Notes under the pieces: generated by a model
What the model was told of the DNA's origin: nothing
The model's database searches: none
Seen by the model: the letters and a program-made list of their open reading frames with translations, nothing else
Made by a program: the position numbers and the translations under genes
Part shown: one piece after another, positions 4,983-61,521 of the stretch
Numbering within the stretch: position 1 is the stretch's first letter
Layout of the letters: each line of letters begins with the position of its first letter
IMG/VR virus record: IMGVR_UViG_3300025118_000006
Coordinates: 14,500 to 78,499 of that record
Source of the DNA: a virus
DNA length: 64,000 nt
Direction: 5' to 3' (one strand)

Positions 4983-6644
4983 GTGGTTGCGAACGAACAC
5001 AGTGATATGGCCGCCAACATACTAGCTACGACAGCAGGTCGCAGGCGAATGTCTACGGCCTCTTTAATATACTTTGACACATACTATTGCGGCATGGCCT
5101 ACGCGGAACACAGGCAGAGGTGGTTGGACATTCTAGCGACCGCATATCGCAAGGGTCAGTCATCACGGGATGACCAGTCTTTACTGCTTCTGGCCCCTCG
5201 AAAGCATGGAAAGACTGAGCTTGCAGTTACATTCACGCTCTGGCTTATCTGCATGAACCGGAACATTCGTGTGCTTTGGATTGGTTCCAAAGCTGACTTG
5301 GCGAAGAAGCGTTTGGCGAGGTGTAAGGCCCTGCTAGAGAGCGCAAGAGTCCAGAATGACTGGTGCGGTGAGCCTGAAACCGGGTTCGGGCCTTGGCGTG
5401 GGGATTCTGGCGATGTTGAGTGGGACAAGAGCCGTATCCGAATCACGCGCAGCGCGGCACTTATTGACCCAACGATTGAAGCAGTCGGTATGCGTGGCGC
5501 AATCACAGGTGGTCACTTCGATGTTATTATTCTGGATGACGTGGAGGACGAGAATTCGGTGCGCTCGGGTAGCGTGCGCGAGCACACGAGAGAGTGGTTC
5601 GAGGGAACGCTTACACCGATGTTAAATCAGGGTGGGCTCATGCTTTGCATTGGTACCCGAAAGCATTTCGACGATCTTTACGGTCGTTTGGATGAAAATC
5701 CCATGTGGCAAATCATCACCGACAAAGCCATTATGCAATGGCCTGATAAGTATGAGCCGACGTACGAGGAAATCGACGGCAAGGATATATTCACAGGCGT
5801 TTCGGTGGAGGGTGAGGCGAAGGTTTTGTGGCCTGAACAGCGACCGTTCGAGTACATGATTCGTCAGAGAATTAAGATGGGTTCGACGATTTTCGCTCGC
5901 GAGATGCAGAACGAGGTAGTGGATGATGAGACGGCCCAATTCAGGCTTGCTTGGCTGAAAGACGCTATGGCGAACGGGTCGAACTATAGTCTTTACGAGT
6001 TCCCGCCAAACGTGGACATCGTAGACATCGTGCAAGGCTGGGATCTCGCGCTAGTTACAGATCAAAGAAAGGCAGACGAGGGCGATAGGGACTTCACAGT
6101 AGGCGTGACGTGGGGTCGAGATGCGAAGGGAAATCGGTATCTTCTAGGAATGAGGCGGGAGCGAGGTATCACCCCAGGAACATTGCGGAACTCCATCATC
6201 AAAGAGCATGAACGCTTTGCTGGAAAGGTTCGAGCTATTGCTATTGAGAAGAACAGCTTTGGCGAACTCCACTTCCTCGGACTTCAGAAAACCACAGATT
6301 TACCTCTAAAGGCACACATTACGGGGCGAAACAAAACCGACTCATGGGAAGGCGTACCGTCGATGGCGGCGCTTTTTGAAAACGGCAAGGTTCACTTCCC
6401 AAGCAAGACCCTGCGCGACAAGGAGATCATGAAGGACGTGATCGCGGAATTCCACGGCCTTGGCAGGGAGCGACACGACGACATCGTAATGTCTATGTGG
6501 ATAGCTGAAACCGTGCTACGCAAAGGTGGCTTCCAGTATCGTGCCGCGCAGGGAGACGACCTAATAGAGACGGATATTGTTGGCGCAGACGACTTCTCTC
6601 ATTTCGGTGGCGGGTTCGACGACCTACCCTTCCTTGACGATTGA
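4983..6644 (+). CDS. terL: terminase large subunit
   Basis: Walker A APRKHGKT; ITGGHFDVIILDD Walker B; IGTR coupling motif; RNase H nuclease GWDLA...DFT...HDDIV. Confidence 0.95.
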   Translation: MVANEHSDMAANILATTAGRRRMSTASLIYFDTYYCGMAYAEHRQRWLDILATAYRKGQSSRDDQSLLLLAPRKHGKTELAVTFTLWLICMNRNIRVLWIGSKADLAKKRLARCKALLESARVQNDWCGEPETGFGPWRGDSGDVEWDKSRIRITRSAALIDPTIEAVGMRGAITGGHFDVIILDDVEDENSVRSGSVREHTREWFEGTLTPMLNQGGLMLCIGTRKHFDDLYGRLDENPMWQIITDKAIMQWPDKYEPTYEEIDGKDIFTGVSVEGEAKVLWPEQRPFEYMIRQRIKMGSTIFAREMQNEVVDDETAQFRLAWLKDAMANGSNYSLYEFPPNVDIVDIVQGWDLALVTDQRKADEGDRDFTVGVTWGRDAKGNRYLLGMRRERGITPGTLRNSIIKEHERFAGKVRAIAIEKNSFGELHFLGLQKTTDLPLKAHITGRNKTDSWEGVPSMAALFENGKVHFPSKTLRDKEIMKDVIAEFHGLGRERHDDIVMSMWIAETVLRKGGFQYRAAQGDDLIETDIVGADDFSHFGGGFDDLPFLDD

Positions 6645-14384: not shown

Positions 14385-14794
14385 TGCGGTCGGTTGCGCT
14401 GATGCTTGTTATGGTTCTAGTTGGGCAAACCTCTCTAAAAGCACAGGTTTGCACTCAGGCGGTCGGAATCGAGGCTGGCGTCGTAACACCGTGCGACGGT
14501 GTGCTTTGGAGCCCTACGCACTCAGTACAGGCTGTGGAGTGCGTGTCTGTAGATCTACCGAAGTGTGTTGCAGATGTGGATTACCATAGCGGTCGGTCTG
14601 CTACTTGTCGCCAGCACATCTCGAAACTGGAGACATTGTGCGACGGGAAGATCGGCCAACTAATCGACATTGCTGAAGATGCTGCGGGCCTGAAGCCGGA
14701 GCCGTGGTATAAGAACCCGTGGCTGATGTTGGGATTAGGGGTGGTCATAGGCGGGGCTTCGGTTTACTATATTGGTACGAACTACGGGAACTAA
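14381..14794 (+). CDS. putative spanin-like protein (signal peptide, Cys-rich, C-terminal TM)
   Basis: N-terminal signal; six Cys; PWYKNPWL plus a TM tail. Confidence 0.45.
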   Translation: MMRSVALMLVMVLVGQTSLKAQVCTQAVGIEAGVVTPCDGVLWSPTHSVQAVECVSVDLPKCVADVDYHSGRSATCRQHISKLETLCDGKIGQLIDIAEDAAGLKPEPWYKNPWLMLGLGVVIGGASVYYIGTNYGN

Positions 14795-14796
14795 GC

Positions 14797-16413
14797 ATGG
14801 GTTGGTTAAAAAACATCGTTGCGCCAGACGTTATTGATCTGGAAAAAGCACGCAAAGCCGAGGTTGTGAACAAGTCAAAGGCTTGGAGCTTCGACCCAAA
14901 CGAGCTACGGACAGGTCTGTACGGCGGGCCTGAAGTAGCGGAGCACCAAGGTACGCTAGGGGTCAATTACAACACACTTATGGTTATGAGCCGGGTGCCC
15001 ATTATAGGTGCCATTATACAGCTTAGAACAAACCAGTTAGCTGAATTCGCGATGCCACAAATGTCGCGCTACGGCCTTGGATTTAAGATCGCGATGCGCG
15101 ACAAAAAAGCCAAGGCGACGACAGCAGCGGAAAATCAGATTAAGGAAATACAGACGCTCATACAGACATGTGGTGGCTACAAGTACGAACCCCAAGGTTT
15201 CGAGGGTTTCATGCGGAAGATTGTTCGAGATTCGCTCACCTATGATCAAGCGAACTTCGAGGTTGTTTACAACAAGGCCGGTAAGCCCGGAGCTTTCTGC
15301 GCTGTGGATGCGATGACAATCAGAAGAGCTATCCCAAAGGACGCCAAGCGCAAGGGCGGGGCAGCAGGTCTTGACAGCAACGATAAGGATGCTTTCGTTC
15401 AGGTTCTAGGCAATAAGCAGGTAGCTGAATTCGGAAGGCAGGAGATGGCTTGGGGGATTAGAAGACCCAGGACTTGGATGAGAGTAAACGGCTACGGCTA
15501 TCCAGAGTTGGAAGAGTCGATGAGGATCATAACAAACCTCTTGAATGCGGCTGAATACAACTCAAACAACTTCACTCATGGAGTTCACGCGAATTCGATT
15601 CTGACAGTGAAGTCTGGGATGTCGAAAGAGGTGTTTGCGGCTTTCAGGCGACAGTTTTACGCAATGGTTTCCGGGGTTCGCAATGCGAAGAGAACACCGA
15701 TTATCCAGCTTGACCCAGAGATGAAGGAAGAAATCTCAAACGTGTCAATGAGCCAATCGAACAAGGAAATGGAATACTCCAACTGGATGTCTTTCCTCCT
15801 TAAAGTCTTGTGTAGCGTGTACGGCCTGGACGCGGCAGAGCTAGGCTTCGTGTATGGCAACGAAGGGCAGGCGGCTTCACTCTCGCAAAAAGGGCCGGAG
15901 GAGCGAATTGTCGCGTCGAAGGAGCGTGGGTTGAGGCCGCTCGTTCGTGCCGTACAGGGATGGATGAATCAGTGGGTTGTTTACCCGGTAGACGAGGATT
16001 TTGAGATTCAATTCGTAGGTTTCGACGCTCACTCTGAATCAGAAAAGGTAGAGCTAGACACGAAGGCTGTAAAAGCGTTTAAAACCGTAAACGAAATCCG
16101 CGCAGAACACGACCTACCGCCACTCGAAGACAGCGTTGCTGACATGGTCTTAGATCCAACTTACGTGCAGTTTGCAACGGCGGGTGGAGAAGAAGAGGGC
16201 GGCGAGGAAGAAGGCGACTACGGGTCATATTTTGATGACTCTAAAGGCGACGAAGGCGAAGATGACGAGGAAAAGGGAGAAGAGGAAGTGCCCAGTGGCA
16301 AGCCGAAGAAGCCAGAGCCTCGAAAAAAAGAAGGCGGCAAAGGCGACTATAGTGACTCCTTTGAAGAGAAAACAGAAAAAGGGCTCCGAACGGTCACTAT
16401 CGAGGTGACCTAG
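14797..16413 (+). CDS. portal protein
   Basis: VRDSLTYDQANFE, GYGYPELE, N.F..G, KEMEYSNW..FL...CSVY..D..ELGF, SKERGLRPL, KTVNEIRA motifs (Twort/SPO1-type portal). Confidence 0.92.
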   Translation: MGWLKNIVAPDVIDLEKARKAEVVNKSKAWSFDPNELRTGLYGGPEVAEHQGTLGVNYNTLMVMSRVPIIGAIIQLRTNQLAEFAMPQMSRYGLGFKIAMRDKKAKATTAAENQIKEIQTLIQTCGGYKYEPQGFEGFMRKIVRDSLTYDQANFEVVYNKAGKPGAFCAVDAMTIRRAIPKDAKRKGGAAGLDSNDKDAFVQVLGNKQVAEFGRQEMAWGIRRPRTWMRVNGYGYPELEESMRIITNLLNAAEYNSNNFTHGVHANSILTVKSGMSKEVFAAFRRQFYAMVSGVRNAKRTPIIQLDPEMKEEISNVSMSQSNKEMEYSNWMSFLLKVLCSVYGLDAAELGFVYGNEGQAASLSQKGPEERIVASKERGLRPLVRAVQGWMNQWVVYPVDEDFEIQFVGFDAHSESEKVELDTKAVKAFKTVNEIRAEHDLPPLEDSVADMVLDPTYVQFATAGGEEEGGEEEGDYGSYFDDSKGDEGEDDEEKGEEEVPSGKPKKPEPRKKEGGKGDYSDSFEEKTEKGLRTVTIEVT

Positions 16414-16703
16414 TGAAAGTAATCGTAAAAGAATCCTTTTCAGGAGAGCTTGACAGTCGCCACGCGGTAGAAAAATTGGAACAGGCTATAAGCGAGTTCT
16501 CAGAACTTGCTGGGTTGGGGGTGGGTAATTCGTTCCAAAAGCACACTTGTGATGGCCACGAGGTTTTGGAAAAGGCCGTAAAGACACACGACCACCGAGT
16601 GGACGCTGTCGATGAGATGGTTGAGTTAATGCGTAAGGCTTATGAGAAGCGCATGAAGGCGATGGTCAAAGACATCGCGAAGCGTGTCAGCGATGGCGTC
16701 TAA
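16413..16703 (+). CDS. hypothetical head-associated protein
   Basis: Coupled to portal and MuF. Confidence 0.6.
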   Translation: MKVIVKESFSGELDSRHAVEKLEQAISEFSELAGLGVGNSFQKHTCDGHEVLEKAVKTHDHRVDAVDEMVELMRKAYEKRMKAMVKDIAKRVSDGV

Positions 16704-19183
16704 TGTCCTTACCACCAAAAATAGATGACATAGTATCCGCGCACCACGATGGGTTCCTCTACGATCTTTTTGGAGAAAGCCTCGGTCTTCCACTGGAAAG
16801 GGTCGCTGAGTTGCGAAGTATGGGGATACTTCCTGATATCCCGGTACCAATTTTAGCCCGTGCAGGGCTGGACGTATTGGCTGCTCGCCCGCTCATGATG
16901 GCCATGATGATTGGTGCCGCAAAGCAGTCGATGGAACCTGGGAGGCGAAAACAGGCAGACCGATGGCCCGCAAAGAAGTGGGCCAAGCAAATCATCAGAG
17001 ATGCCCCTTCGGTAAGTTCACCACCCCCGACTATCCCCTCGGTGACACCTATCGGTGGCGATACGCCTGACCTTCCACCACCACCTCCTCCTCCTCCGAC
17101 CGGATCGGGAGGTGGTGGGCCTAAACCACCGGACCCACCGGACTTTTTGACCGACCTACAGAGGCACTCTTGGACGCAAGCAAGGGAGCGTGCAGGATCG
17201 TTTGTTCGAGGGCTAGGTAACATTGTCACAGCAGAAGCAGAAACAACGCTTGCGGAAGTGTGGAACGGAGAGCAAATAGAGCGCGAGACAGACGCAGATA
17301 AGCGTGCAGAGGTTGTCGATATCATTCGGGAAGAGACGGCGGCAGCCACCGCCAACAACACGAAGTGGAGATCTAGTACAGCGCAAAAGCTCGCATCAAA
17401 CCTTGCACACAGGACTGGTGACTGGAGTCGCAATTGGGAGCGGATAGCGCGAACGGAGCTTCAGGGTGCGTACAATGAGGGCAGTGTGTTGGAGGCCATC
17501 GAATGGGACGGCCCAGACGCGCTCATAGCCAGAATACCTGAGCCAAGCGCGTGCGCTGATTGCCGACGTGTACACATGACACGAGATGGCAGGCCACGGG
17601 TTTTCAAGGCGAGCGACCTCATAAACAATGGTACAAATGTAGGCCGAAAACGCGCACAGTGGCAGGCTACTATCTGGCCCGTTCACCCGAATTGTAGATG
17701 CGACACGCAACACATCCCCGAGGGAATGGAGTTCGATGATGAGTGGGGGCTTGTATACAAGGCGTATTCATTCTCGCAGTTAGCGAACCTTGTAAAGGCC
17801 AAGGGCTATCTATACAAGGCAGGGCCTTTTATCGGTCCACGCGGTGGCAAGTGGGCTGACGCGAAGCATACGATAGCCTGGAAGGAAAAACAGACAACAA
17901 GGACTAAGGGGCATGAAATAGCAAGACTCCCGCCAGAGGTTCAATCAGAAATAGCAGGGGCGGTCACTTTTGTGACCCGCCTTTTTCCAGAATTGCAAGA
18001 TGTCCGCGTGGTGATTGCAGATCATGATCTTGGCCATTCTCACGCCACTAAGGACAGTAAAAAAATCAAGCTCAACCCCACAACTTGGCTGGACGTAAAT
18101 AAGCTAAAACAGCAACGGGATGAGGCGGCAGGGCTGGTGGTAGATGGGTCGATCAAGGGCATTATCGTACACGAGTTAGGCCATATACTGGCTGGCCGAA
18201 TACTCAACGCGCTTGGATCGAAAAAGTACAACGAAATAGCGCAAAAGCACTTAGGCGTACCGCAAGATGGCTTAGATCCGTGGGGAGAGCCTGTATTCAC
18301 CACGCTGTCTAACTCTGACATGCCAAGCGCATACGCTATGGATAACAGGAGCGAGTACGAGGCAGAAGCCTTTTCAGCAGCGGTATTTGGAAAAGCAGAA
18401 ACGAACCCCAAGTGGGCGGCAGGGGCTGTAAACAAGTCTAAAGCGTATTGGGCAGACATGCTCCACGCTTATCGAAATCTAAGCAAGTCATTAGCAAAAT
18501 CCGGTCCCTACATCGGCCCTCGCGGTGGTAAGTGGGCTGACGCCAAGCATACAATTGCGTGGAAGGAAAAGTCTAAGAGGCAGCTTAAAAGGGAGGCTTC
18601 GGAGAAGAGAAAGAAGGCGCGAGCGAGCGCAGAAGGGCCTGCGGTAGAGGCGTATAACAAGGCCGTTAAAGACCACAACGAACACGATGACGCTGGGTAT
18701 GACGCAAACGCTTCGGACATGGTCGATGTCGCGTACGGCGGGTACGCACCGGCAAAAATAGACGCCATGAAGGTTTGGGCCAAAAAGGTGGGGCTAGAGG
18801 TTGGCGAAACTGATTTTTCAGGTGGAGCATCGTATGGCAGCGCGTACATACAATTGAAAGTTCCAGGCATCGGCGCGGTGGGAGGATCAGGACGGTTGGA
18901 CCGGGCCGTTGTTGTGAGAATGTCGGATCACGGAAACATGGCGCGAGTTGGCGGGCGGCTGCAAACTGACACAAACATAGCGCCTGATTTTGGTTGGACT
19001 TTCATGAAAGGGATAGGGCACGCGATTGGTATCTTGCGCGAACGCTTTCAAGAGCACCTCGACAACGCAGACGACGACGATTATTTCGACCAAGACCCAG
19101 ATGGCGATGCAGAGCGCAAGCGAATGGAAGAGGCTATGCCACTTCTTGACAAGCTCGGAAAGCTGTACCGAAAACCCGGTTAA
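16703..19183 (+). CDS. MuF/SPP1 gp7-like head morphogenesis protein with two C-terminal cargo modules (zincin peptidase; RxSDH domain)
   Basis: RIARTE...AC.DC...PVHPNCRC MuF core; HELGH...SAYA...EYEAEAF; two GP[FY]IGPRGGKWADAKHTIAWKE leaders. Confidence 0.85.
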   Translation: MSLPPKIDDIVSAHHDGFLYDLFGESLGLPLERVAELRSMGILPDIPVPILARAGLDVLAARPLMMAMMIGAAKQSMEPGRRKQADRWPAKKWAKQIIRDAPSVSSPPPTIPSVTPIGGDTPDLPPPPPPPPTGSGGGGPKPPDPPDFLTDLQRHSWTQARERAGSFVRGLGNIVTAEAETTLAEVWNGEQIERETDADKRAEVVDIIREETAAATANNTKWRSSTAQKLASNLAHRTGDWSRNWERIARTELQGAYNEGSVLEAIEWDGPDALIARIPEPSACADCRRVHMTRDGRPRVFKASDLINNGTNVGRKRAQWQATIWPVHPNCRCDTQHIPEGMEFDDEWGLVYKAYSFSQLANLVKAKGYLYKAGPFIGPRGGKWADAKHTIAWKEKQTTRTKGHEIARLPPEVQSEIAGAVTFVTRLFPELQDVRVVIADHDLGHSHATKDSKKIKLNPTTWLDVNKLKQQRDEAAGLVVDGSIKGIIVHELGHILAGRILNALGSKKYNEIAQKHLGVPQDGLDPWGEPVFTTLSNSDMPSAYAMDNRSEYEAEAFSAAVFGKAETNPKWAAGAVNKSKAYWADMLHAYRNLSKSLAKSGPYIGPRGGKWADAKHTIAWKEKSKRQLKREASEKRKKARASAEGPAVEAYNKAVKDHNEHDDAGYDANASDMVDVAYGGYAPAKIDAMKVWAKKVGLEVGETDFSGGASYGSAYIQLKVPGIGAVGGSGRLDRAVVVRMSDHGNMARVGGRLQTDTNIAPDFGWTFMKGIGHAIGILRERFQEHLDNADDDDYFDQDPDGDAERKRMEEAMPLLDKLGKLYRKPG

Positions 19184-20123
19184 AAACACACTTGTTGAAC
19201 TGAAAGCCACTCCATAGTAATTTGAACTGAACAACTCGGAGCCCACAATGAAGACTTTTCAAAGCCTGAACGACATTTACAAGGCTGCAAAGAAGCCAAA
19301 GAAGGAAGAGAAGGAACCTGAAGAAGAGGTGTCCGAGGGGCAAATGTCCTTGTTTGACGGCCTAAAAAAGGCCGCAGACGAAGAAGAGGACGAGGACGAG
19401 AAGCGCGACAAGAAGCTGCAACAACGGCTCGACGAAGAGGCGGCTGGTGGCGAGGAAGAGTATAAGCGGATGAAAGAGGAAGAGGCTGAGAAGTCTTTCT
19501 CGGGCCTCGAAGGAATGGACATTGTCAAAAACATGGCCAAGGTCCAGGCCGAAATGAAGAGCGGGAAGTCCGCGAAAGAAGCTGTTCAGGCCGCATACCC
19601 GGATTACACCGAAGAGCAGGTAGAGATCTTTGTGAAGGACATGAAGAAAGGCTACGGCGTCTATCGTGCCAAGAAGGAAAAGAAGATGATTAAGTCAGAC
19701 AATGAGAACACACGGCTTGTGGTGAGCCTCACAAAAGGCGCATTGGAAGAGAGCGTTTCGATCATGCGAGGTGGTCCAAGTCGAGCAGACGTGGCTACAG
19801 CGTTGGCTTCATCGATTAAGAAGGGTTTCAACATCCCTGCGGAGTTCCCAGAGATGATGTTAGACGATCTCGACACATGCTCTAACGTAGCTCGCAAGAG
19901 CTTTGCTAATGCGTGCATGATGACCGCATCGGGATACCCAGAATTGCAGGTAGCTGGCGACATGGTCGGGTACCTTGAAGAGCTTACAGAAGGATAAATT
20001 ATGGCAGATTTTACGTCGCTAATTCATGGTGGGCTCAACGATCTCCGCAAGGGGAAGGGTCCGTTTATCGGACCCCGTGGCGGCAAGTGGGCCGATGCCA
20101 AGCATACAATTGCGTGGAAAGAG
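17822..20123 (+). repeat. three copies of the 22-aa motif GP[FY]IGPRGGKWADAKHTIAWKE (17822-17887, 18503-18568, 20058-20123) in two genes
   Basis: 21/22 aa identical with many synonymous nucleotide differences. Confidence 0.95.
19248..19997 (+). CDS. highly charged head-internal/scaffold-like protein
   Basis: E/K-rich; many x-K-[A/S/G] motifs; GGAG RBS. Confidence 0.6.
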   Translation: MKTFQSLNDIYKAAKKPKKEEKEPEEEVSEGQMSLFDGLKKAADEEEDEDEKRDKKLQQRLDEEAAGGEEEYKRMKEEEAEKSFSGLEGMDIVKNMAKVQAEMKSGKSAKEAVQAAYPDYTEEQVEIFVKDMKKGYGVYRAKKEKKMIKSDNENTRLVVSLTKGALEESVSIMRGGPSRADVATALASSIKKGFNIPAEFPEMMLDDLDTCSNVARKSFANACMMTASGYPELQVAGDMVGYLEELTEG

Positions 20124-23100
20124 GACGGTGGGAAGTCGGGTGGTAAAAAGTTCAAGCCGGACCCTGAGTATAAGTTAAGCTCGGAGGGGCATAACAAAAA
20201 AGACTACAACCGTGGCCTGAAGGAGGGGATGTCTAGCACGACAATCCCGCAAACGTCCGAAAAAGATAAGAAAGACACGAGCTATATGGCTGGCCTGAAA
20301 CAGGGCTTAATGGTGCAGATTAAGGCAAAAGACCACGCGAAAGCTCGCTATAAAATGCTGCGAGAAAGAGCAGACCGAGGTGAAAAGGGTGGGATTCCGA
20401 AGGGGTCTAGTGTCACCGAGAAAGTCTACATCGAGGCAAACACCGACGCCATCATGGAGAACATCCTGTCCGGCATGGAGCCGGACGGAAAGGGTGGCTA
20501 CAAGGGTGGCTATAGAAAAGCCTCCACCACCTTCTCGGACCTCGCGAAAGGAAAGCCCACAAAGTATCTCAAGCGTAAACGCGGCAAGGGTGGTCGCTAC
20601 GAGTACACCTACGCCGAAGACGGTAAACCTAAGAAGAAGAAGGGCCGCTTTGGGAACCTTCTAAGCACGTTGATGGGTGTCGTTAAGAAGCATCCATACG
20701 CGCTGATGGGTGAGTTTAAGTCGATGGTACGCGACTTCGATTTGGATGAGCTAATTGAGATGCGCTCCGAGATCAAAGACGCACTCGAAGCGAAACCTGA
20801 GAAGAAGGCTCCGGGCGAGAAGAAGGCTCCCAAGAAAGAAACCGCCGAAAAGAAAAAGCCAGCCCCAAAGAAAGGCCCGTCGGAGAAAGATATTCTTCGC
20901 CAGATGCTCAAGGCCATCGACAAGATGATCGCCAAGAAGCAGGAGGCGAACTCGAAGCTAAGTCTGAGGAGCTTGGTCGCGGGCTATCACAAGGGCGACA
21001 CTGAAGCGATTAAAGAGCTATACAAGAGAGCGCAGGAATTGCTTCCTGGCATTCGCATCTCAGACGCTCTTAACGTGGTCGCAACGGCGGCTGAAAACTA
21101 CGGGAAATTGCCGAAAGAATTTGTGGACGAGATGATTCGGGAGAACCGGGTCAAGGGCAAGAAGCCACCCGCAGCCGCTACAGAAGAGGCTCCGAAGCCC
21201 GCTGCCAAATACGAACGCTCAAAGTGGGCTGATTTTAAGAGCCAAATGGCCTCGTCTGACGGCGGCGCAAAATTAAACAGGCAATACGCGGAATTCGCGA
21301 AAAACGCACTGAAAGCCACGTCAAAGAAAGACCTAAAGCACGCCATCGAACAGGCGAAGGCAGCGAGTAGAAAGGATGACACGGTGGTCACTAGGACTGG
21401 TGTCGGGTATTCGACAGGAATCAAAGGCAAATTAAAGCGATTGCAAGCCCACTTGGAAAACAAGCTCAAGCTAGTGTCCAAGTATGGCGAGAGCGGGTTG
21501 GCCAAAGAAAGCGAAAAAAAGCAGAAAGAAAAGAAGCCAGTCACTCCGCAAGTTCCCGCGATGGAGGGCATGGCACCACTTGGAATAGCTCCGAAGCCCG
21601 CTGGCGAGGACATTGGCGTAGCCAAAGAGAGAGGCGACAACCGATACAAAAGCTCTGGCACCACCGACAAGGCCACGAATCACGATGAGATTATCGCCGC
21701 TGGCGGGGAATACCTCGGTCAAGGTGTGTACACGGATAAAGGTCCACCCAAGGCAAAGCGTGGGAAAAAGGGCAAGGTTGAGATCGTCCACCGTGGAGAA
21801 AAGAAACTGACCGATGGGACCATCTACGGCAAGGGTGACTGGGCCATCACTAAGCAACTTGAGTCGAAAAGGGTTACAGTGACAAACATAGCTACCGGGC
21901 ACTCCATCGGTGGCGAGATGTCCGGGCCACAGGCTTCGTACTTGATGGACCAAGTCATGGAATTGGAAGCGAGTGGAAAGCTGGACGGGTTCGACCCAGA
22001 CAATTTGTCCTCATCGTCATCAAAACCAGCGTTTGATGCTCTCAAGAAAGTCGCAGACGAAGTGCGCGAGGAAGGTAACTCTGGTATGCCTATCTGGAGC
22101 CGACGAAACAAGGCGAAACGAGAGGCTAACAGGCGGGCGAAGGTCGAGAAGCTCACCGAAGCAGCGTCCGTGAAAGGCGTCATCAGCCGCCCACTAGCCC
22201 TGGCTGATGTGAAAAGAAAAGAGCACAAGAGCGGAGAGGCCGCTCACAAGCGGGCAAGAAATTTTCAATCTACAGACGAATTCCGACTAAATCTTCAGCA
22301 GTCCATAGTAGACCGTTTCGAGGGCGAGCAGTACATGATTTCAACGGACGGCCACAGGATGGCGTTGATACCAGTATCGAATGACGTGAAACAAGGGGTG
22401 GGCTACGGCGAGGGTTCGCGAGATGCTCTGGGTGGAGGACGTGAATTTCCAAACTATAAGCAGGTCATACCGGATGACCGGAAGGCAAATGACACCCACG
22501 ACTTCGACGCCGAAACACTGCTGGCGCACGCGAAGCTGGGGGCATCGACGCCGGGTGTCATGGCGGGTTACGTTCATTTATACGCAGACGGTGGTGCCCA
22601 CAAAGCCCAAGCCAGTCATTCGGCTGTGATATCGCCTGAAGTTGACGAGAGGGAAAAGGGCATGGCGGGGATCGCTCTTGCGGAGTCCAAGCGCCCTTCC
22701 ACTGCGGGCGAGCCCACCGGAGGCGACAGCAAGAGCATCTCGGTGAACGCAAGGTATTTGGTAGACGCCCTTGAGGGCGCAAAAGGCTCAGTGTCCGTGT
22801 ATTACAAGGACAAAGGTAGCCAGATGATCATTGAAAGAGCCGATGGCGAGATACACGTCATCATGCCTGTGCGTGATGCTATGCCGAAGGACCACCCACA
22901 CAGGACGGAAGAGTGGGAGGTAAGCCCAGCCAGCAAGTCCTTCACCAACTTCTCCGATCTTTTCAAAGCGAAGCCCACCAAGTACAAGACTCGCAAGCGC
23001 GGAAAGGACGGAAGGTGGGTTTACACGTATGCTGAGAAGAAGGCACCGAAATCGCGGATGGGCGCGTTCTTGAACAAGATTGTCGGCTTTTTCTCTGAGC

Positions 23101-25319
23101 ACCACGACAAAGAGGATAACCTCATAGCGGCAGAAAAGAAGCTCATCTACGATCTGGAAACGCCACAGCTTGAGATGCTTAGGGATGCGATAAAGGCCGA
23201 ACTGGCCGCGATGGAAAAGAAGCCTGTTCCGGGGGCAAAGAAAAAGAAGCCCTCAAAGAAACGCTCGGGAGCACCCGTAACAGCAGAAAAGAAGGGGCCG
23301 TCACGCAAGCAAATTCTTCAGCAACTTCTTGCGAAGATCGATGGAGAGTTGGCTGCTCGCGCAATCGTGGGCTCCGCACCAACGGAGTCCGAAGACAACT
23401 TCGAGACGATGCCTGATGAGGAGTCCATCGGGCACCGTAGAGCCCGAGAAGTAATGGCCATGACCGTGAGCGATGCTTCACGGCTTGCGAGCGAAGAGCC
23501 AGGGACTCCGTTACGAGCCCCACACCACACAACATCGACACAAGGTTTACTCGGTGAACTTGACCAAGCGCAGGGGGGCATCCTATTTCTCGACCAGATC
23601 GAGGACTTCTCCCTTGAGTCGATCAAAAAGCTCGCAGTTGCGATGCGAGACAACCCCTATGTGATGATCGGGTACAGAACCACCGGCACCGGCACCGAAA
23701 CCGACAAGGTGAAGCTGAAGGCCCGCCTCGAAGCCCTGGGTGTTGATGTCAGCATGTGGGATGCCAATGAGGGCGTATCCGAAGACAACTTCGAGACGAT
23801 TCAAGAGCACTATAGCGCGAAGAAGCAGCTTCTCAGAGACGTGGACGTTGTTCGCGCCTCGAAACTTAATGAGCTTAACGTGCCGTCACACTCGGAAATT
23901 ATGGACCACGCGGTCAATCATTCCCATTATAGGCACGTTAAGCCAGCCTTTAAGAGTGCCAAGGAGAAAATTGACCGCCTAAATGAAGCTCTTGCGGCGC
24001 TAGGTGTAAGAGAGTGGCGGGGTTACAAAATAAAGCCGTTCGCCTCTAGCGACTTAGATGACTTAATCGCGATGAGGGATCAGATACGGCGCGATGAAGA
24101 AGCCCTAAGCGCGAGGGTGGGCTTGGTTTCGGTAGACCTTCCGTCGAATTCAATGATTGGCCGTGAGCATCCCGAGGTAGGGCCACAGATCAGGGAGGAA
24201 AGGGAGAAGTTAGAGGAGGTCAAATCGGCTATTGCAGCTTACAACAATGAGGGCACATCCGAAGACAACTTCGAGACGATGCCTGAAGCAACCACGCCCG
24301 TAAGCCAAGCGCATGAAGAGAATCGCCTGGACGCTGAGTTGCGAAGCAACAACACCAGCGAGCAGAAGGCCAACGAGAACATCTTCACGTATGCCGAAAA
24401 TGCCTTGGACCCGGACTCGCTTAAATTCGTCATCGAGTGGTCAGAAAGTGGTGCTGTAGAAGACGGCCAAGAGTTCGCATCAGTCAATGAGCTTAACGCC
24501 AAATTGCAGGAAATATCCGACCACCATAGGGAGCGGTACGGTCTTGGTGGTGGCTACTTTAAGACAAAGGTCTACGCTGAACTTGAGGGCAATCGGTTCT
24601 TTGGCAACCGTCTGGACGTTACATCGGGCGGCGAAGACGTAAATCTGGTAGATCACATGACTGCGATTTCTCATTATTACCAGTCCGACAGGGGTCGAGA
24701 ATATTGGTCGGCGGTTCAGGCTAACCAACGTGACAGGGGTGAAGAGACAGGCGAGCAGGCGCACGAGCGGGCGCAGTCGTATAAGAACATGGTTCAGCTA
24801 GTGCGGGACCATCAAAGAATTGCCAGTGGCTACGACATCGCAGGGGGCGACCCTCCTCAAGTAAAGTCTAAGAGAGAGTTAGACAAACTATCCGAAACAA
24901 GAAGAGCACAGGCCGATGCTTGGGAACAAGCAGAGCGAGAGGCCGAACAAAGAGCCGCCCAGGATGCTCACGCGGCTCGAACAGCAGGCTGGGAAGCCCC
25001 GCAGAGCAGGCGAGAGGTAACCAAGCGCGTTAAGCGAGCTATCGTTCAGGCGACTGGTTTGCCAGCGAAGGACGTTAGCGTTCGTGGTTCAACAGGGACC
25101 GCCTGGGGGTGGGTACGGATAAGCGGAAAAACGCAAGCAGCGCAAGCGGCTATTGATGCGTTTCAGGGAAGGACTTATTGGGGCAACATTTCTCCAGATG
25201 ACTGGGACAGGGCAACGCTAGAGTTTGAAATTGGTGCGGGCATTCACACTCCGGGCTCTATCTCGCGAGGCGGCTTCACTAACTTCTCAGACCTGCTCAA
25301 ATCAATAGGCCGTGCCTAA
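20001..25319 (+). CDS. large polyvalent/cargo polyprotein (beta-clamp-like, ComM/YifB-like fragment, LPD25-like domains)
   Basis: STDGHRMA...FPNYKQVIP...VNARYLVDAL...VIMPVR; PLRAPHHT...GILFLDQIEDF; VIEWSES...GYFKTK; repeated linkers and leaders. Confidence 0.75.
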   Translation: MADFTSLIHGGLNDLRKGKGPFIGPRGGKWADAKHTIAWKEDGGKSGGKKFKPDPEYKLSSEGHNKKDYNRGLKEGMSSTTIPQTSEKDKKDTSYMAGLKQGLMVQIKAKDHAKARYKMLRERADRGEKGGIPKGSSVTEKVYIEANTDAIMENILSGMEPDGKGGYKGGYRKASTTFSDLAKGKPTKYLKRKRGKGGRYEYTYAEDGKPKKKKGRFGNLLSTLMGVVKKHPYALMGEFKSMVRDFDLDELIEMRSEIKDALEAKPEKKAPGEKKAPKKETAEKKKPAPKKGPSEKDILRQMLKAIDKMIAKKQEANSKLSLRSLVAGYHKGDTEAIKELYKRAQELLPGIRISDALNVVATAAENYGKLPKEFVDEMIRENRVKGKKPPAAATEEAPKPAAKYERSKWADFKSQMASSDGGAKLNRQYAEFAKNALKATSKKDLKHAIEQAKAASRKDDTVVTRTGVGYSTGIKGKLKRLQAHLENKLKLVSKYGESGLAKESEKKQKEKKPVTPQVPAMEGMAPLGIAPKPAGEDIGVAKERGDNRYKSSGTTDKATNHDEIIAAGGEYLGQGVYTDKGPPKAKRGKKGKVEIVHRGEKKLTDGTIYGKGDWAITKQLESKRVTVTNIATGHSIGGEMSGPQASYLMDQVMELEASGKLDGFDPDNLSSSSSKPAFDALKKVADEVREEGNSGMPIWSRRNKAKREANRRAKVEKLTEAASVKGVISRPLALADVKRKEHKSGEAAHKRARNFQSTDEFRLNLQQSIVDRFEGEQYMISTDGHRMALIPVSNDVKQGVGYGEGSRDALGGGREFPNYKQVIPDDRKANDTHDFDAETLLAHAKLGASTPGVMAGYVHLYADGGAHKAQASHSAVISPEVDEREKGMAGIALAESKRPSTAGEPTGGDSKSISVNARYLVDALEGAKGSVSVYYKDKGSQMIIERADGEIHVIMPVRDAMPKDHPHRTEEWEVSPASKSFTNFSDLFKAKPTKYKTRKRGKDGRWVYTYAEKKAPKSRMGAFLNKIVGFFSEHHDKEDNLIAAEKKLIYDLETPQLEMLRDAIKAELAAMEKKPVPGAKKKKPSKKRSGAPVTAEKKGPSRKQILQQLLAKIDGELAARAIVGSAPTESEDNFETMPDEESIGHRRAREVMAMTVSDASRLASEEPGTPLRAPHHTTSTQGLLGELDQAQGGILFLDQIEDFSLESIKKLAVAMRDNPYVMIGYRTTGTGTETDKVKLKARLEALGVDVSMWDANEGVSEDNFETIQEHYSAKKQLLRDVDVVRASKLNELNVPSHSEIMDHAVNHSHYRHVKPAFKSAKEKIDRLNEALAALGVREWRGYKIKPFASSDLDDLIAMRDQIRRDEEALSARVGLVSVDLPSNSMIGREHPEVGPQIREEREKLEEVKSAIAAYNNEGTSEDNFETMPEATTPVSQAHEENRLDAELRSNNTSEQKANENIFTYAENALDPDSLKFVIEWSESGAVEDGQEFASVNELNAKLQEISDHHRERYGLGGGYFKTKVYAELEGNRFFGNRLDVTSGGEDVNLVDHMTAISHYYQSDRGREYWSAVQANQRDRGEETGEQAHERAQSYKNMVQLVRDHQRIASGYDIAGGDPPQVKSKRELDKLSETRRAQADAWEQAEREAEQRAAQDAHAARTAGWEAPQSRREVTKRVKRAIVQATGLPAKDVSVRGSTGTAWGWVRISGKTQAAQAAIDAFQGRTYWGNISPDDWDRATLEFEIGAGIHTPGSISRGGFTNFSDLLKSIGRA
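23388..24286 (+). repeat. three perfect 23-bp direct repeats TCCGAAGACAACTTCGAGACGAT (23388, 23778, 24258), in frame (SEDNFET)
   Basis: Identical at synonymous positions; spacing 390 and 480 bp. Confidence 0.95.
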
Positions 25320-25537
25320 TGCAGCCAGCCCAGCCCCCAAAGGATACAGCAATTGTGTGCGATTACTGCGGTTTTCGCTTGGGCGTCTGGGTTAAATCAC
25401 GCCTAAAGATACACGTTCGGAGTCGGCTTTTAGTGGTAAGAAAAAGTGGACAAGCTGAGTTGAGATGTCACAATTGTAAAAGCGACACTCTACTTCCTCT
25501 TTTTCTACCTCTGGAGCAGCCATGTTCATCTGGTTAA
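25319..25537 (+). CDS. small zinc-finger protein (Com-like CxxC...CxxC)
   Basis: CDYCG...ELRCHNCK. Confidence 0.55.
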   Translation: MQPAQPPKDTAIVCDYCGFRLGVWVKSRLKIHVRSRLLVVRKSGQAELRCHNCKSDTLLPLFLPLEQPCSSG

Positions 25538-25977
25538 ACGTACTTCTGACTATGATGTTCCTTCCGGTTGCGCTGTTGTTTGGTAAAATTAAGCGAGTCG
25601 GGCTCTGTAAGGACGCAGTAAACGATCAGGTAAACGAAGCGTTTCCCGTGTCGAAGTGGACCCCGTATTTAGATCTTGAACCACGAGGCTGGTTTAGGTG
25701 TTGGATGGAGAGGAATGGGATCGGTGGTATGGCGTGCCTCGGGTACGTGTTTATCCAACAAAGACACGAGTTAATTGTGTTCCATGAGTGCGTGCATGTG
25801 ATGCAGCAGAGCGCGGTGAGCCCTGCACTGATAGGTCTTACCTACCTTCTGGACATAATCGTGTTCCTTCCGTGGCGTGGATGGTTCAAGGAGGGAGAGG
25901 CTAAGAGGGTGTCCACGGTAGAGGTCGTAGCGTACCGGGTGACAGGGCAAGACGAGTGGTCTTCGGGACAAGATTAA
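25522..25977 (+). CDS. membrane-associated HExxH metallopeptidase-like protein
   Basis: LGYVF...LIVFHECVHVMQQ...Y...EVVAY. Confidence 0.6.
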   Translation: MFIWLNVLLTMMFLPVALLFGKIKRVGLCKDAVNDQVNEAFPVSKWTPYLDLEPRGWFRCWMERNGIGGMACLGYVFIQQRHELIVFHECVHVMQQSAVSPALIGLTYLLDIIVFLPWRGWFKEGEAKRVSTVEVVAYRVTGQDEWSSGQD

Positions 25978-26083: not shown

Positions 26084-26842
26084 ATGTACGAGAATAATAT
26101 CGACGTATTCAGCGCATGGACCCCGTTCGACGTTGTCGAAAAGGGTGAGTCCGAAAGCAGTCCTAGTGGTCGTATCTCCGGTGTTGTTTCAACTGAGACG
26201 GTAGACCAACAGGGCGAGCAGGTTGTACAGAAGGGCCTCGACTGGGACTATTTCCTGAGCAAGGGTTGGTTCAACTGGGAGCACGCGGCTGGGCCTGAAA
26301 ATGTTCTAGGGTACCCAGACAAGGTTGAACCCGTAGAAATCAACGGAACCCACGCAACTCGCGTAGAGGGCCGTCTCTTGATGAACAAGGCTAAGGCCAA
26401 AGAAATTTACAATACGGCGGTAAGTCTACAGAAGTCGGAATCAAACCGACGGCTTGGATTTTCCATCGAGGGTCAGGTGTTAGAGCGCGAAGGGAAGACG
26501 ATCAAAAAAGCTCGTATTCTCAATGTTGCGATAACTGCTCACCCGATTCATCCAGACGCACGTTTGGAGATCCTAGCGCAATCACTCCTCGCCCGCGCCG
26601 CCTCTGTCGGCTATCAAACCCCAGCCGGTGAGGGCGGCTCTATAGCACCTTTGGTCGCACAATCTCTGGAAGGCTCAGTTTCAACTGCCACCTTCGGGGC
26701 TCGTGGTCTTGAAGCGTATTTGAAGAGCTTGAAAGAGGAAGACCTGATTGCGCTGCGTATTCTAAAGAGCTTTCCAACGCTCAATTTTGGAGACGCACAT
26801 TCCATAGTAACAGACTTTTTACGAAAAAAGGGAGTCCTCTAA
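26084..26842 (+). CDS. prohead protease
   Basis: ISGVVSTETVDQQGEQVVQKGLDWDYF..GWFNWEH, LGFSIEG, NVAITAHP motifs (Twort/SPO1-type). Confidence 0.9.
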   Translation: MYENNIDVFSAWTPFDVVEKGESESSPSGRISGVVSTETVDQQGEQVVQKGLDWDYFLSKGWFNWEHAAGPENVLGYPDKVEPVEINGTHATRVEGRLLMNKAKAKEIYNTAVSLQKSESNRRLGFSIEGQVLEREGKTIKKARILNVAITAHPIHPDARLEILAQSLLARAASVGYQTPAGEGGSIAPLVAQSLEGSVSTATFGARGLEAYLKSLKEEDLIALRILKSFPTLNFGDAHSIVTDFLRKKGVL

Positions 26843-27564
26843 TGAAGAAGGCAACGCAACTCCGAGAGGAGTTAAACGGCGTGCTTGCGGACGGGGAAGT
26901 AGATCGCGTAGTAAAATCCGCGATTGACGCTGGAACAGTCGAGAATGACATCGACTACAAGCCAGCGGTAGATCCAGAAGCACTCGACGTAGCACTCGAA
27001 GCCGTTAAGAAAGCGATGAATATCGCTAAAGAAGAAGTATCAACTGAGCAAGCACTAGCTCAAGCCGAAGAGATTGAGGAAGAAGTTTCCAAGTCTCTTA
27101 GCTTTGACGAAGTCGCTCTCGCAGAAGAAGAGGACTACGTTGATGTAACGGACGTTCTCGACACAATCACAAAGGGCGCAGACAGCCTTCTGAGTGAGAT
27201 TCGCCACGAGCACACAGTGTTGGCAAGCGCAATCACTGAGATGACTGCTGTATACCGCGACATCGCTAAGGGCATCAACGCGCTTAGTGGTCGAGTCGGT
27301 GACCTAGAGAACGAAACCAAAGAGGTCCAAAAGGGTCTTGCCATTACTCCTGAACGTAAATCCGTTACAGGCACGTTAGAGGCAGTTCCCCACCCAGGTG
27401 ACGCTCCAGTGCAGCTTGACCGCGCCGGACTCATCCAGAAGGGCCTGACACTTCTTGAAACTTCGACTGAGCCAATGAAGCAAGCAGAACTCTCGAAAGC
27501 CATTTCGCTTTTGGAGTCTGGTGCTGACATTAACGAAGTCGTAAGCAATTACCATCTTAACTAA
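26842..27564 (+). CDS. capsid scaffolding protein
   Basis: Acidic coiled coil between protease and MCP; multiple K|S/A/G sites. Confidence 0.7.
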   Translation: MKKATQLREELNGVLADGEVDRVVKSAIDAGTVENDIDYKPAVDPEALDVALEAVKKAMNIAKEEVSTEQALAQAEEIEEEVSKSLSFDEVALAEEEDYVDVTDVLDTITKGADSLLSEIRHEHTVLASAITEMTAVYRDIAKGINALSGRVGDLENETKEVQKGLAITPERKSVTGTLEAVPHPGDAPVQLDRAGLIQKGLTLLETSTEPMKQAELSKAISLLESGADINEVVSNYHLN

Positions 27565-27578
27565 GGAGGGCTTTCATT

Positions 27579-29009
27579 ATGCTTTCAATGCCCCAAGCAA
27601 ACGACCTAGTGTCGGTGAAGGACTTGCATGAGCTTAACAAAGCTCTCCGCAAGGCCACAGCGGCTGGCTACCAGACACCAGCCAGCCAAACACCAGACGG
27701 CAACACCACCTTTAGCCCACTGGTGCCTCAATCTATTGAGGCGACTCTCGCTTCAAAAACTTTCACTATGGACGAACTCGTTCTGTGGAAAATGCTGCCT
27801 AAACGCGCAGTTTCTCAAACCGTTCATGAGTACACCGTTGTAAATGAGCATGGTGGAGATATGGACCCATTCTTCGTGGAAGGTGGTGGTGGATATGAAT
27901 CCCTCAGCACTTACGAAAGAAAGAGTCTGCGAATCAAGTACCTCATGGAAAAGCGAGAGGTTACTGACGTGGCCTCTATGGTCGGAATCATCGGCAATAA
28001 CGCAAACGCTATTGCTGAAGCCACCGAGCGTGGAACCATCTCTCTTTTGAGCAAGTTGGAGAAGCAGCTTTTTATCGCTGACTCCAGCATCAACCCACTT
28101 GCATTCGATGGTATCGATAAGCAGATGGCTGATGGCGCTCCTAACAATGTCAGCAACCTTGCTGGTGATGACCTTACTCCAATGAAGTTGCAGGAAATCC
28201 TGTCTGGCTCCTATGCCGAGCCAAACTTCGGTAAGCCATCCGTAGTTCTCGTTGAGCCTCGCGTACACGCGCAGCTTATTGAGCAGGCTACTGCTTATGG
28301 TCGCCACGACATGATGGGCACGGGACAGGGAACAATGACCTTCGGTCGTTCCGACCTCCGCATCTCGGTGCCTTACGGTACTGGTTCCGTACCTGTAGTT
28401 GGTTGCCCGTTCTTGTACCCAGAAGGTGCACCGAACGCAGCCGCTGTTGGTACTGCACCGACAGCACCTTCTGCTTTCAACACCCCTACCGTTGCAACTC
28501 ACGCTTCTTCCCTGTTCCTCTCCGGCGATGCCGGAACTTACTACTACCACGCGGTAGCAGTAGGACAGGGCGGTAAGTCAGCACCGATTGTGTCGGCTGC
28601 TATAACAGTAGCTGCTGGTGAGCGAGTATCCGTTGGTATTAACGATGACGCCCTTGCTACACCAGTAAGCGGCTCCGAGAACACTGCAAGTATCTTGTAC
28701 TACAAGATTTATCGCAGCACGACCGGCGTCCACGCTGATGCAAAGTGGGCCTTCAACGTCAAGAAAGCGGATACCAGTAGTGACACCGCATTCAACGATG
28801 ACAACCTTCACCGCCCTGGCATGTCCAAGGCGTATGCTCTTCAGATGACTCCAGATGTAATCGAGTGGGTAAAACTTCTCGACTTCATCCGTCGTCCTCT
28901 TGCAGAGGTGAAGACCACTAAACCATTCTTGCTCATGCTCTTTGGTGCGCTAAACATCAAAGTTCCGACCAAGAACTGGCTTATCCGTAACATCAAGACT
29001 AATCCTTGA
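27579..29009 (+). CDS. major capsid protein
   Basis: Propeptide then K|ATAAGYQTP; QSIE..L; HEY; LE..LF.ADS.I.PL.FDG; Ig-like insertion; C-terminal LFGAL.IK.P.K...IRNI; terminator follows. Confidence 0.9.
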   Translation: MLSMPQANDLVSVKDLHELNKALRKATAAGYQTPASQTPDGNTTFSPLVPQSIEATLASKTFTMDELVLWKMLPKRAVSQTVHEYTVVNEHGGDMDPFFVEGGGGYESLSTYERKSLRIKYLMEKREVTDVASMVGIIGNNANAIAEATERGTISLLSKLEKQLFIADSSINPLAFDGIDKQMADGAPNNVSNLAGDDLTPMKLQEILSGSYAEPNFGKPSVVLVEPRVHAQLIEQATAYGRHDMMGTGQGTMTFGRSDLRISVPYGTGSVPVVGCPFLYPEGAPNAAAVGTAPTAPSAFNTPTVATHASSLFLSGDAGTYYYHAVAVGQGGKSAPIVSAAITVAAGERVSVGINDDALATPVSGSENTASILYYKIYRSTTGVHADAKWAFNVKKADTSSDTAFNDDNLHRPGMSKAYALQMTPDVIEWVKLLDFIRRPLAEVKTTKPFLLMLFGALNIKVPTKNWLIRNIKTNP

Positions 29010-58315: not shown

Positions 58316-58380
58316 ATTTATTTTCGCTCTACTGAGAGCCAATTTGGCCTCGTGGATAATTATTCTTATTTTTTTTGTTG

Positions 58381-58431
58381 TAAAGGGCTTGACAACACCC
58401 CCATCGCTGAGGCATAAAGGTGAATGTGACG
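58381..58431 (+). promoter_or_regulatory. sigma70-like early promoter with GTGACG box
   Basis: TAAAGGGC-TTGACA-N18-CATAAA-N7-GTGACG, preceded by an AT-rich UP-like tract. Confidence 0.7.
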
Positions 58432-58453
58432 AACTTGAGATGGAGATTTCAAA

Positions 58454-59503: not shown

Positions 59504-59513
59504 CGTCACACCC

Positions 59514-59557
59514 CTGGCTGACCGGCTCGCAGCCTTTACTCCATCCCGGTCAGCCAG
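59514..59557 (+). terminator. 12-bp perfect stem-loop after the amidoligase (terminator or processing site)
   Basis: CTGGCTGACCGG...CCGGTCAGCCAG; no strong U tract. Confidence 0.5.
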
Positions 59558-59617
59558 CCCCTCGGGGTTATTCTAAAGCTGTTGACAGCGTGACCATTAT
59601 TTGAAACAAAGGACATA

Positions 59618-60214: not shown

Positions 60215-60216
60215 AT

Positions 60217-60597: not shown

Positions 60598-60617
60598 TTT
60601 GTGATGAGGTGAGAATC

Positions 60618-61511: not shown

Positions 61512-61521
61512 GGGGTGTGTG

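Follow-up and report, generated by a model that had tools for sequence, protein, structure and literature searches.

The 64,000-nucleotide stretch of viral DNA analyzed here (the window; positions 14,500 to 78,499 of IMG/VR record IMGVR_UViG_3300025118_000006, a 78.5-kb virus record with a CheckV completeness estimate of 54%) contains a head module in which two large proteins carry three copies of a 22-residue leader peptide, GP[FY]IGPRGGKWADAKHTIAWKE. The carrier genes lie between those for the portal and the protease and, judged by domain content and late/virion gene setting, encode phage-type polyvalent proteins that would be packaged into the virion. As set out below, the leader heads every cargo unit in the predicted virion-packaged polyvalent proteins of one uncultured phage lineage with genomes of ~100 kb. 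The leader-bearing region is arranged as follows, with ↓ marking putative protease sites.

14719..16413, + strand: portal protein, which fixes the head-module context
16703..19183, + strand: 826-aa polyvalent protein with an N-terminal region, a MuF-like domain (aa ~225-346), leader 1, a HELGH zincin, leader 2, and a C-terminal segment
17810..17821, + strand: L-Y-K-A element, putative site K↓A, abutting copy 1 upstream; the family logo is anchored on its K
17822..17887, + strand: leader copy 1 (GPFIGPRGGKWADAKHTIAWKE), aa 374-395 of the 826-aa MuF fusion, between MuF domain and zincin
18491..18502, + strand: L-A-K-S element, putative site K↓S, abutting copy 2 upstream at the end of a predicted helix
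18503..18568, + strand: leader copy 2 (GPYIGPRGGKWADAKHTIAWKE), aa 601-622 of the 826-aa MuF fusion, between zincin and C-terminal 204-aa segment
20001..25319, + strand: 1772-aa polyvalent cargo protein with leader 3, two type-2 leaders, a beta-clamp-like region, an AAA-like fragment, and LPD25
20043..20057, + strand: L-R-K-G-K element, putative site K↓G, abutting copy 3 upstream
20058..20123, + strand: leader copy 3 (GPFIGPRGGKWADAKHTIAWKE), aa 20-41 of the 1772-aa polyvalent protein, preceded by a 19-aa N-terminal stretch

Degenerate back-translation of the peptide across the window yields exactly three matches, all on the plus strand, and 0 of 100 dinucleotide-preserving shuffles contains one. 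While the three peptides differ only at the F/Y position, their DNA differs pairwise at 11, 14, and 12 of 66 bases; all changes outside the F/Y codon are synonymous third-position substitutions, and the flanking stretches of 45 nt show no relationship to one another (9-15 of 45 identical). This synonymous divergence rules out that the copies are a DNA-level element. Protein-level selection on the leader, as put forward in the initial annotation, is borne out beyond the window: in a comparison covering 18 contigs, approximately half of the codons for identical residues differ, both within and between genomes. The leader is indeed present in two genes of the window, as also claimed there, but the near-identity of these copies reflects no special tie, as copies from one genome (16.3/22 identical) resemble each other no more than copies from different genomes do. 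Rather, the window copies are near-identical because each sits near the family-wide consensus. Equal identity within and between genomes and saturated synonymous sites likewise exclude concerted evolution or gene conversion, and no sign of gene conversion or of lineage-specific co-variation among copies is seen. Thus, the copies are old, evolve independently in DNA, and are held to one consensus.

The segments that follow the copies are unlike one another. Copy 1 precedes the HELGH zincin (weak Peptidase_M48 match, E 0.0016), while copy 2 is followed by a Lys/Arg-rich tail; neither the 204-aa segment after copy 2 nor the 139-aa segment after copy 3 has a family match. The Pfam and PHROG matches of the 826-aa protein to MuF or minor head proteins are all weak or below the curated cut-off. 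Upstream of its MuF domain lies a low-complexity stretch, Pro8-Thr-Gly-Ser-Gly4-Pro-Lys-Pro-Pro-Asp-Pro-Pro (17070-17140, aa ~124-146). This stretch is conserved among close relatives, and its model is disordered.

The leader as core of a short linear module

An exact scan of IMG/VR for GPRGGKWADAKH finds 17 stretches on 13 contigs, with several copies per open reading frame (ORF). A 28-sequence profile (A2) retrieves 394 proteins from a word-indexed collection, and an exhaustive hidden Markov model scan of 1.84 billion representatives returns 779 proteins at E ≤ 1e-3, 460 of them at E ≤ 1e-10. The typical member carries two to five copies inside a phage polyvalent protein of 400-3000 aa. In the logo of 287 distinct instances, L-x-K-[G/A]-G-P-[Y/F]-I-G-P-[R/K]-G-G-K-W-A-D-[A/P]-x-H-[T/K]-I-P-W-[K]-[E/D], the residues Gly8, Gly12, Pro9, Gly11, Asp16, and His19 are conserved at 96-100%, and ~12 residues over the 22 positions of the motif are near-invariant. 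The 22-residue peptide is the core of a ~26-residue short linear module, Leu-x-Lys-[Ala/Gly/Ser](1-3)-Gly-Pro-[Phe/Tyr]-Ile-Gly-Pro-Arg-Gly-Gly-Lys-Trp-Ala-Asp-x-x-His-Thr-Ile-Pro/Ala-Trp.

The motif matches neither Pfam nor PDB sequences up to E 10, and its sole PHROG match, a weak one to phrog_3202, is not reproduced on four genomes and is ascribed to chance. Searches of INPHARED with the region (megablast) and with the motif (tblastn) give zero matches, and a four-copy member compared by tblastn with INPHARED and PLSDB matches in its cargo domains only, never in the motif. The string GPRGGKW was not found in the literature, and term searches of the MuF-toxin literature found no linker or leader motif; the 22-residue leader is apparently previously undescribed. 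Both the AT-hook core Arg-Gly-Arg-Pro and clustered RGG repeats are absent from the motif, whose core is Pro-Arg-Gly-Gly-Lys-Trp with a single RGG. A true RGRP is seen only by chance, in the tail of one relative.

AlphaFold2 (AF2) prediction of the 44-aa module from a 28-sequence alignment gives a mean predicted local distance difference test (pLDDT) score of 56 and mostly coil, with short helical turns only in the upstream flank and no autonomous fold of the leader. For the 826-aa protein (12-sequence alignment), only the MuF domain (aa ~200-350) is modelled with confidence. Copies 1 and 2 lie in stretches with pLDDT <50 (aa 355-409 and 594-625, respectively), and both copies are preceded by a helix terminating at the Lys. 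Docking of the leader on the neighbouring zincin is not seen in this low-confidence model. The predictions suggest with moderate confidence, as the alignments are shallow, that the leader module is a short linear motif in a linker rather than a domain.

The upstream lysine element and the prohead protease

In the window, the copies are preceded by YK↓A, AK↓S, and GK↓G, and the initial annotation had taken K↓[A/S/G] for a processing site common to all copies. The family follows the same rule. Among 438 instances anchored on the last Lys or Arg before the core, P3 is Leu in 61% (Phe, Ile, Met, or Val in a further 26%), P1 is Lys in 95%, P1' is Ala, Gly, or Ser in 95%, and P2' is Gly in 71%. No second site follows the leader core in the 287-instance logo.

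The element is also found where the leader is not. In four genomes, a motif-less L-x-K↓[A/S] stands at the capsid protein N-terminus and again within the C-terminal protease tail, and at both places a shared stretch of ~30 residues comes after it. The features concerned are, in the window:

26084..26842, + strand: prohead (head maturation) protease, candidate processing enzyme (phrog_1028, E 1.3e-45)
27579..29009, + strand: major capsid protein of the SPO1 gp6.1 / phi812 type
27579..27653, + strand: putative 25-aa capsid propeptide ending in ...L-N-K-A-L-R-K↓A, an L-x-K↓[A/S] element without leader

The shared stretch (27579-27700 and 26570-26700) reads ...A-[ST]-[AV]-G-Y-Q-T-P-A..., in relatives ...AG...PG..G.GFPLR.ESLE, and by its sequence looks like a maturation or co-assembly signal common to capsid and protease. 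Residues ~20-28 of SPO1 gp6.1 (ALNKALEAG) align to the L-x-K stretch of the window capsid protein, and the 9row chain, a solved capsid homologue, begins opposite residue ~30. A published cleavage site for SPO1-type capsid proteins was not found in the literature. Further, WDLRK↓S/A without the motif is present at the MuF/zincin junction of genomes G001 and G003, while the homologue at locus L015 reads WDLRK↓AGPYIGPRGG, and the L-x-K element also precedes the type-2 leaders described below, again without the type-1 motif. The distance from the Lys to the GPRGG core ranges from 5 to 10 residues. Because the spacing varies and L-x-K↓[A/S] occurs without the motif, site and leader motif are separable modules. 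By its sequence, L-x-K↓[A/G/S] looks like a maturation site of the prohead protease, and its match to the capsid propeptide junction points to this protease as the processing enzyme.

The same observations bear on the possibility that the motif is a prime-side recognition or docking element for the protease, either the prohead protease or an embedded zincin, which would promote efficient or ordered cutting at the neighbouring Lys and would be idle afterwards. The motif stands directly downstream of L-x-K↓[A/G/S] in ~93% of instances, it lies in disordered linkers within reach of a protease, and an enzyme cleft is a conserved partner that fits the strong conservation. Moreover, zincins are found in the same proteins, and the study of polyvalent proteins by Iyer, Burroughs, Anand, de Souza, and Aravind (2017; PMC5512222) proposes the embedded zincin as processing enzyme, whereas here the site points to the prohead protease. 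Against docking stands the motif-less L-x-K↓[A/S] at the capsid, the protease, the MuF/zincin junctions of G001 and G003, and the type-2 leaders; besides, a Lys-core spacing of 5 to 10 residues is unusual for subsite recognition, and known prohead protease sites are short (3-4 residues). As for the zincin, that of the window and that of G001 have no detectable homology, neither has a homologue found in G002, and a close relative exchanges the zincin cassette for a ParB-like one between the same motifs. The zincin as an obligate partner of the leader is not supported, and docking on a protease as the function of the leader appears unlikely to us. The 2635-aa giant ORF of G002 carries an HExxH.

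Self-cleavage by the invariant Asp16 and His19, which would release the cargo without a separate protease, has in its favour these two residues and an Asp-Pro in ~45% of copies. Yet Asp-Ala replaces Asp-Pro in half of the copies, including all three of the window, no predicted fold would hold a catalytic geometry, similarity to a solved or curated self-processing module is lacking, and a dedicated protease with a matching site is present. We consider this mechanism extremely improbable.

Cargo units, cassette exchange, and the proposed role of the leader

The arrangement of the carriers was analyzed in 204 proteins with 479 instances, among which metagenomic ORFs may be truncated. Copies head domain-sized segments and are almost never C-terminal: they never occur in tandem (minimum spacing ~60 aa, median 256 aa), and the last copy is followed by a median of 386 aa, with a short remainder in just 2-4 proteins that are probably truncated ORFs. 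In 28% of proteins, the first copy falls within the first 30 residues, after a stretch of ~3-30 residues that ends in the L-x-K element. Mapping of Pfam domains on 12 members places the copies between recognised domains, namely Zeta toxin, InPase, DUF5661, ART-PolyVal, PAPS reductase, LPD1, ddrB-ParB, DarA_C, GGDEF, GNAT, Topoisom_I, RelA_SpoT, SNF2 helicase, lethal-factor-like zincin, dual-specificity (DSP) phosphatase, and PolyA polymerase (PolyA_pol). In relatives, InPase, ART-PolyVal, ddrB-ParB, DarA_C, LPD1, RelA_SpoT, and others exceed the Pfam cut-offs, and DUF5661 ends ≤2 residues from the motif start in two proteins. The earlier proposal that copies precede different domains, made from the three segments of the window, thus agrees with the mapping of relatives.

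In nearly all loci with enough flank, the carrier genes sit a few kb from portal, MuF, terminase, protease, or capsid homologues, and the motif is accordingly found in head modules rather than mainly in non-virion proteins. Three complete relatives of ~100 kb share this context and carry 6, 1, and 1 copies, and the same neighbourhood is seen in contigs of metagenome-assembled genomes (MAGs) binned with Lentisphaeria, Myxococcales, and Sedimentisphaerales. At locus L023 (CP070713.1, a Myxococcales MAG chromosome, 559006-571083), two motif copies stand with portal and MuF homologues inside a 3.5-Mb assembly; this region may be an integrated prophage of the motif-bearing lineage and hence a lead to its host.

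Conservation of the leader far exceeds that of every structural protein in these phages, as a comparison of amino acid identities illustrates:

Terminase, window phage versus the three complete relatives: 24-26%
Major capsid protein, same comparison: 29-30%
Portal, same comparison: 37-38%
Protease, same comparison: 39-43%
Motif core, mean over all between-genome copy pairs: 16.7/22 (76%)
Motif core, best between-genome copies: 20-21/22

At the level of sequence, this conservation argues for an invariant binding partner of the leader. Candidates are packaged DNA or a receptor site frozen by the many copies and the horizontally exchanged cassettes.

Exchange of cassettes is visible among close relatives. 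Between the same two motifs, protein P0041 has a ParB-like (DGRHR) cassette in the place of the zincin of the window, and the tail after motif 2 is identical; its MuF domain is ~85-90% identical to that of the window by eye (blastp 61% over the whole P0041 match). Protein P0202, whose MuF domain gives 74% by blastp over aa 1-368, continues into a different domain after the same junction, where the GPRGG motif is absent. Compared with the window protein, P0041 and P0202 each contain 41 additional residues, inserted between ...SFSQLARLAK↓G and ...TAK↓GYLYK. No close DNA relatives emerged when the MuF domain was used to scan viral and metagenome contigs.

The motif might on this basis be a cassette junction, a linker that marks safe recombination points for cargo swaps and has little biochemical function of its own. 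Both exchanges fit such a linker, as do the highly mosaic domain content between motifs and the presence of a different delimiter, SEDNFET, whose 23 bp of DNA are repeated without a mismatch in the same gene. A mere linker, on the other hand, would not keep ~12 of 22 residues near-invariant while synonymous sites are saturated, and copies with 17-21% DNA divergence are poor substrates for homologous recombination. We therefore hold a pure junction role to be very unlikely.

We favour, with about an even chance of being right, that the leader is retained at the N-terminus of each protease-released cargo unit and serves its loading, retention, or ejection. The polyproteins would be built into the prohead, the MuF fusion probably entering via its MuF domain near the portal, and an HK97/S78-type prohead protease would cut after the Lys of L-x-K↓[A/G/S]. 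At the new N-terminus of each released enzyme, the unstructured leader would be kept, often along with a low-complexity tail of basic character. The leader might then serve all cargo as a handling tag and bind one invariant partner, which would be either packaged DNA or some conserved site of a head component, and this binding would retain unrelated cargo domains in the head until they leave with the DNA at infection.

A bolder form of this retained-leader reading, which we put forward tentatively and with the balance leaning against it, is that the leader is a standardised, portable address tag read on every cargo unit by a lineage-wide receptor site or by packaged DNA. If so, any cassette that gains an L-x-K site and a leader would automatically be cut out, stored, and injected. 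The cargo would be plug-and-play, with the tag acting like a secretion signal for capsids and frozen by the need for compatibility with horizontally exchanged cassettes.

Alternatively, the leader may act after injection by binding a universally conserved host component, such as DNA, RNA, or a membrane interface, and thereby place or activate the effectors without any part in capsid logistics. An invariant target of this kind would suit a conservation far above that of any phage protein in carriers binned with Lentisphaeria, Myxococcales, Sedimentisphaerales, and Zixibacteria, and the RGG-plus-Trp/Tyr/His composition and frequent basic tail would suit nucleic-acid or interfacial binding. In line with the latter, Lys/Arg is enriched (19.7% versus 15.6%) and hydrophobic residues are depleted (18% versus 25%) over the 25 residues that follow the motif. 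But the cargo has unrelated targets (kinases, ADP-ribosyltransferases, topoisomerase, phosphatases, nucleases), for which a shared address is not obviously useful, and the motif is strictly coupled to a protease-type site and to genes of the head module, which points to the virion side. Moreover, a single RGG is no canonical RGG box, and the AT-hook core is absent. A role confined to the host cell is, in our estimate, quite unlikely.

Several points weigh against the retained-leader reading. The L-x-K element is kept even where the motif stands at the very N-terminus, with no upstream domain to remove, and may therefore be part of the binding motif instead of a cut site. Not every copy has a basic tail, as 178 of 458 tails carry a net charge ≤0, and binding of DNA through the tail alone can therefore not hold for the family in general. 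The assignment of the protease family rests on the PHROG match, Pfam Peptidase_S78 being sub-threshold (E 0.046), and the two AF2 runs used the shallow alignments given above. A peptide kept after cleavage departs from the phage T4 precedent, in which the targeting peptide is removed. Finally, the motif is found in no cultured phage of INPHARED, and we infer cleavage, N-terminal retention, the partner, and any function in packaging, ejection, or DNA tethering, the roles suggested in the initial annotation, for a lineage without a cultured member.

This T4 precedent, the capsid targeting sequence (CTS), is the only feature common to the internal proteins IPI-III and can load foreign proteins (PMC3012670). 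Like the CTS, the leader is a short conserved N-terminal peptide on unrelated cargo that adjoins a prohead-protease site, here conserved across 479 instances. In contrast, the CTS precedes a cut after L/I-x-E that removes it, while the leader follows its putative cut after L-x-K and would stay on the cargo; unlike the CTS, it also recurs inside polyproteins. As the CTS is removed at maturation and the leader would be retained, the leader is not a member of the CTS class. The CTS is nonetheless the nearest functional precedent for the putative role of the leader. In sequence, the leader is not known to resemble the T4 CTS. For HK97, Duda and colleagues are said to have found that gp5 is cut at Lys↓Ser in maturation and that the short C-terminal tail of the gp4 protease suffices for encapsidation. 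The HK97 protease belongs to the same broad family, but its tail sits on the protease and not on cargo, and has no visible resemblance to the leader. In extracellular contractile injection systems, including the Photorhabdus virulence cassettes (eCIS/PVC), disordered N-terminal leaders load diverse payload domains into a phage-derived injection particle. That particle is a tail-like tube rather than a capsid, and its leaders are longer, poorly conserved, and not known to involve a protease site.

Closer in terms of processing are the giant phages SPN3US and phiKZ, whose prohead proteases (gp245 and gp175, respectively) cut many head-internal ejection proteins at a short consensus and trim their own C-terminus (PMC10052503). 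Their sites end in Glu and remove long N-terminal propeptides, while the putative site at the leader ends in Lys; no conserved retained leader is reported for them, and their cargo consists of separate gene products, not polyproteins (PMC10052503). Phage-type polyvalent proteins, as described by Iyer et al. (PMC5512222), are predicted to be packaged, injected, and proteolytically processed. The carriers resemble them in being large and multidomain, with MuF, zincin, InPase, ART-PolyVal, ddrB-ParB, DarA_C, RelA/SpoT, and LPD domains. Term searches of the main text of Iyer et al. turned up no short leader or delimiter placed between domains.

The leader offers a concrete handle on the way in which the large sets of unrelated effector enzymes in polyvalent proteins are loaded, processed, and delivered by phages. 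A portable loading tag, if this is what the leader is, would explain the cassette-like mosaicism of the carriers and would provide a tool for packaging chosen proteins in phage heads. Its signature, with 779 cluster representatives, is also a means to find virion-delivered effectors in metagenomes.

Type-2 leaders and further features of the head module

The 1772-aa protein contains a second kind of leader. Its pattern, Y-x-[KR]-R...G..G-x-[WY]-x-Y-x-Y, is seen in the window and in the G003 ORFs 57842-63628 and 67492-71736. Further genes of the window head module are listed with its two copies:

4983-6644: terminase
19248-19997: acidic 249-aa protein, between the two leader-bearing genes
20553..20618, + strand: type-2 leader KPTKYLKRKRGKGGRYEYTYAE, after FSDLAK↓G, with an RGG-plus-aromatic core
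22971..23036, + strand: second type-2 leader KPTKYKTRKRGKDGRWVYTYAE, after FSDLFK↓A
26842-27564: scaffold-like protein

Type-2 leaders follow L-x-K or L-E-K elements and co-occur with type 1 in the same proteins. In relatives, they are often preceded by P-R-G-G-[KT]-Y, the core of the GPRGG motif, and the two leader types may be homologous. In total, the 1772-aa protein has three F-[ST]-x-F-S-D-L-x-K elements and three SEDNFET delimiters. It ends in FTNFSDLLK↓SIGRA (25286-25319), which places the same element as before the type-2 leaders 5 residues from its C-terminus; every processed fragment would therefore share the same C-terminal helix. The SEDNFET delimiters (23394-23416, 23784-23806, and 24264-24286) are encoded by an identical 23-bp DNA word, and with identical DNA on one side and 17-21% divergence on the other, SEDNFET and GPRGG delimiters seem to evolve under different regimes. 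The LPD25 match of this protein is weak (26.1 bits versus a cut-off of 27 bits); LPD25 is listed in PMC5512222 as specific to conjugative elements, while here it occurs in a phage protein.

The 249-aa protein is very acidic and has a Q-M-S-L-F-D sequence that resembles a clamp-binding motif, and it could be a counter-charge partner for the basic leaders. By capsid identity (24-30%), the nearest cultured phages, Thermus and SPO1-like phages, are very distant. Between the giant cargo gene and the prohead protease gene lies a 151-aa ORF (25522-25977) with a hydrophobic N-terminus and an H-E-C-V-H (HExxH) sequence but no Pfam match, which from these features could be a small membrane metallopeptidase. 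A 72-aa ORF (25319-25537) overlaps the stop of the giant gene and encodes two CxxC pairs with weak zinc-ribbon matches.

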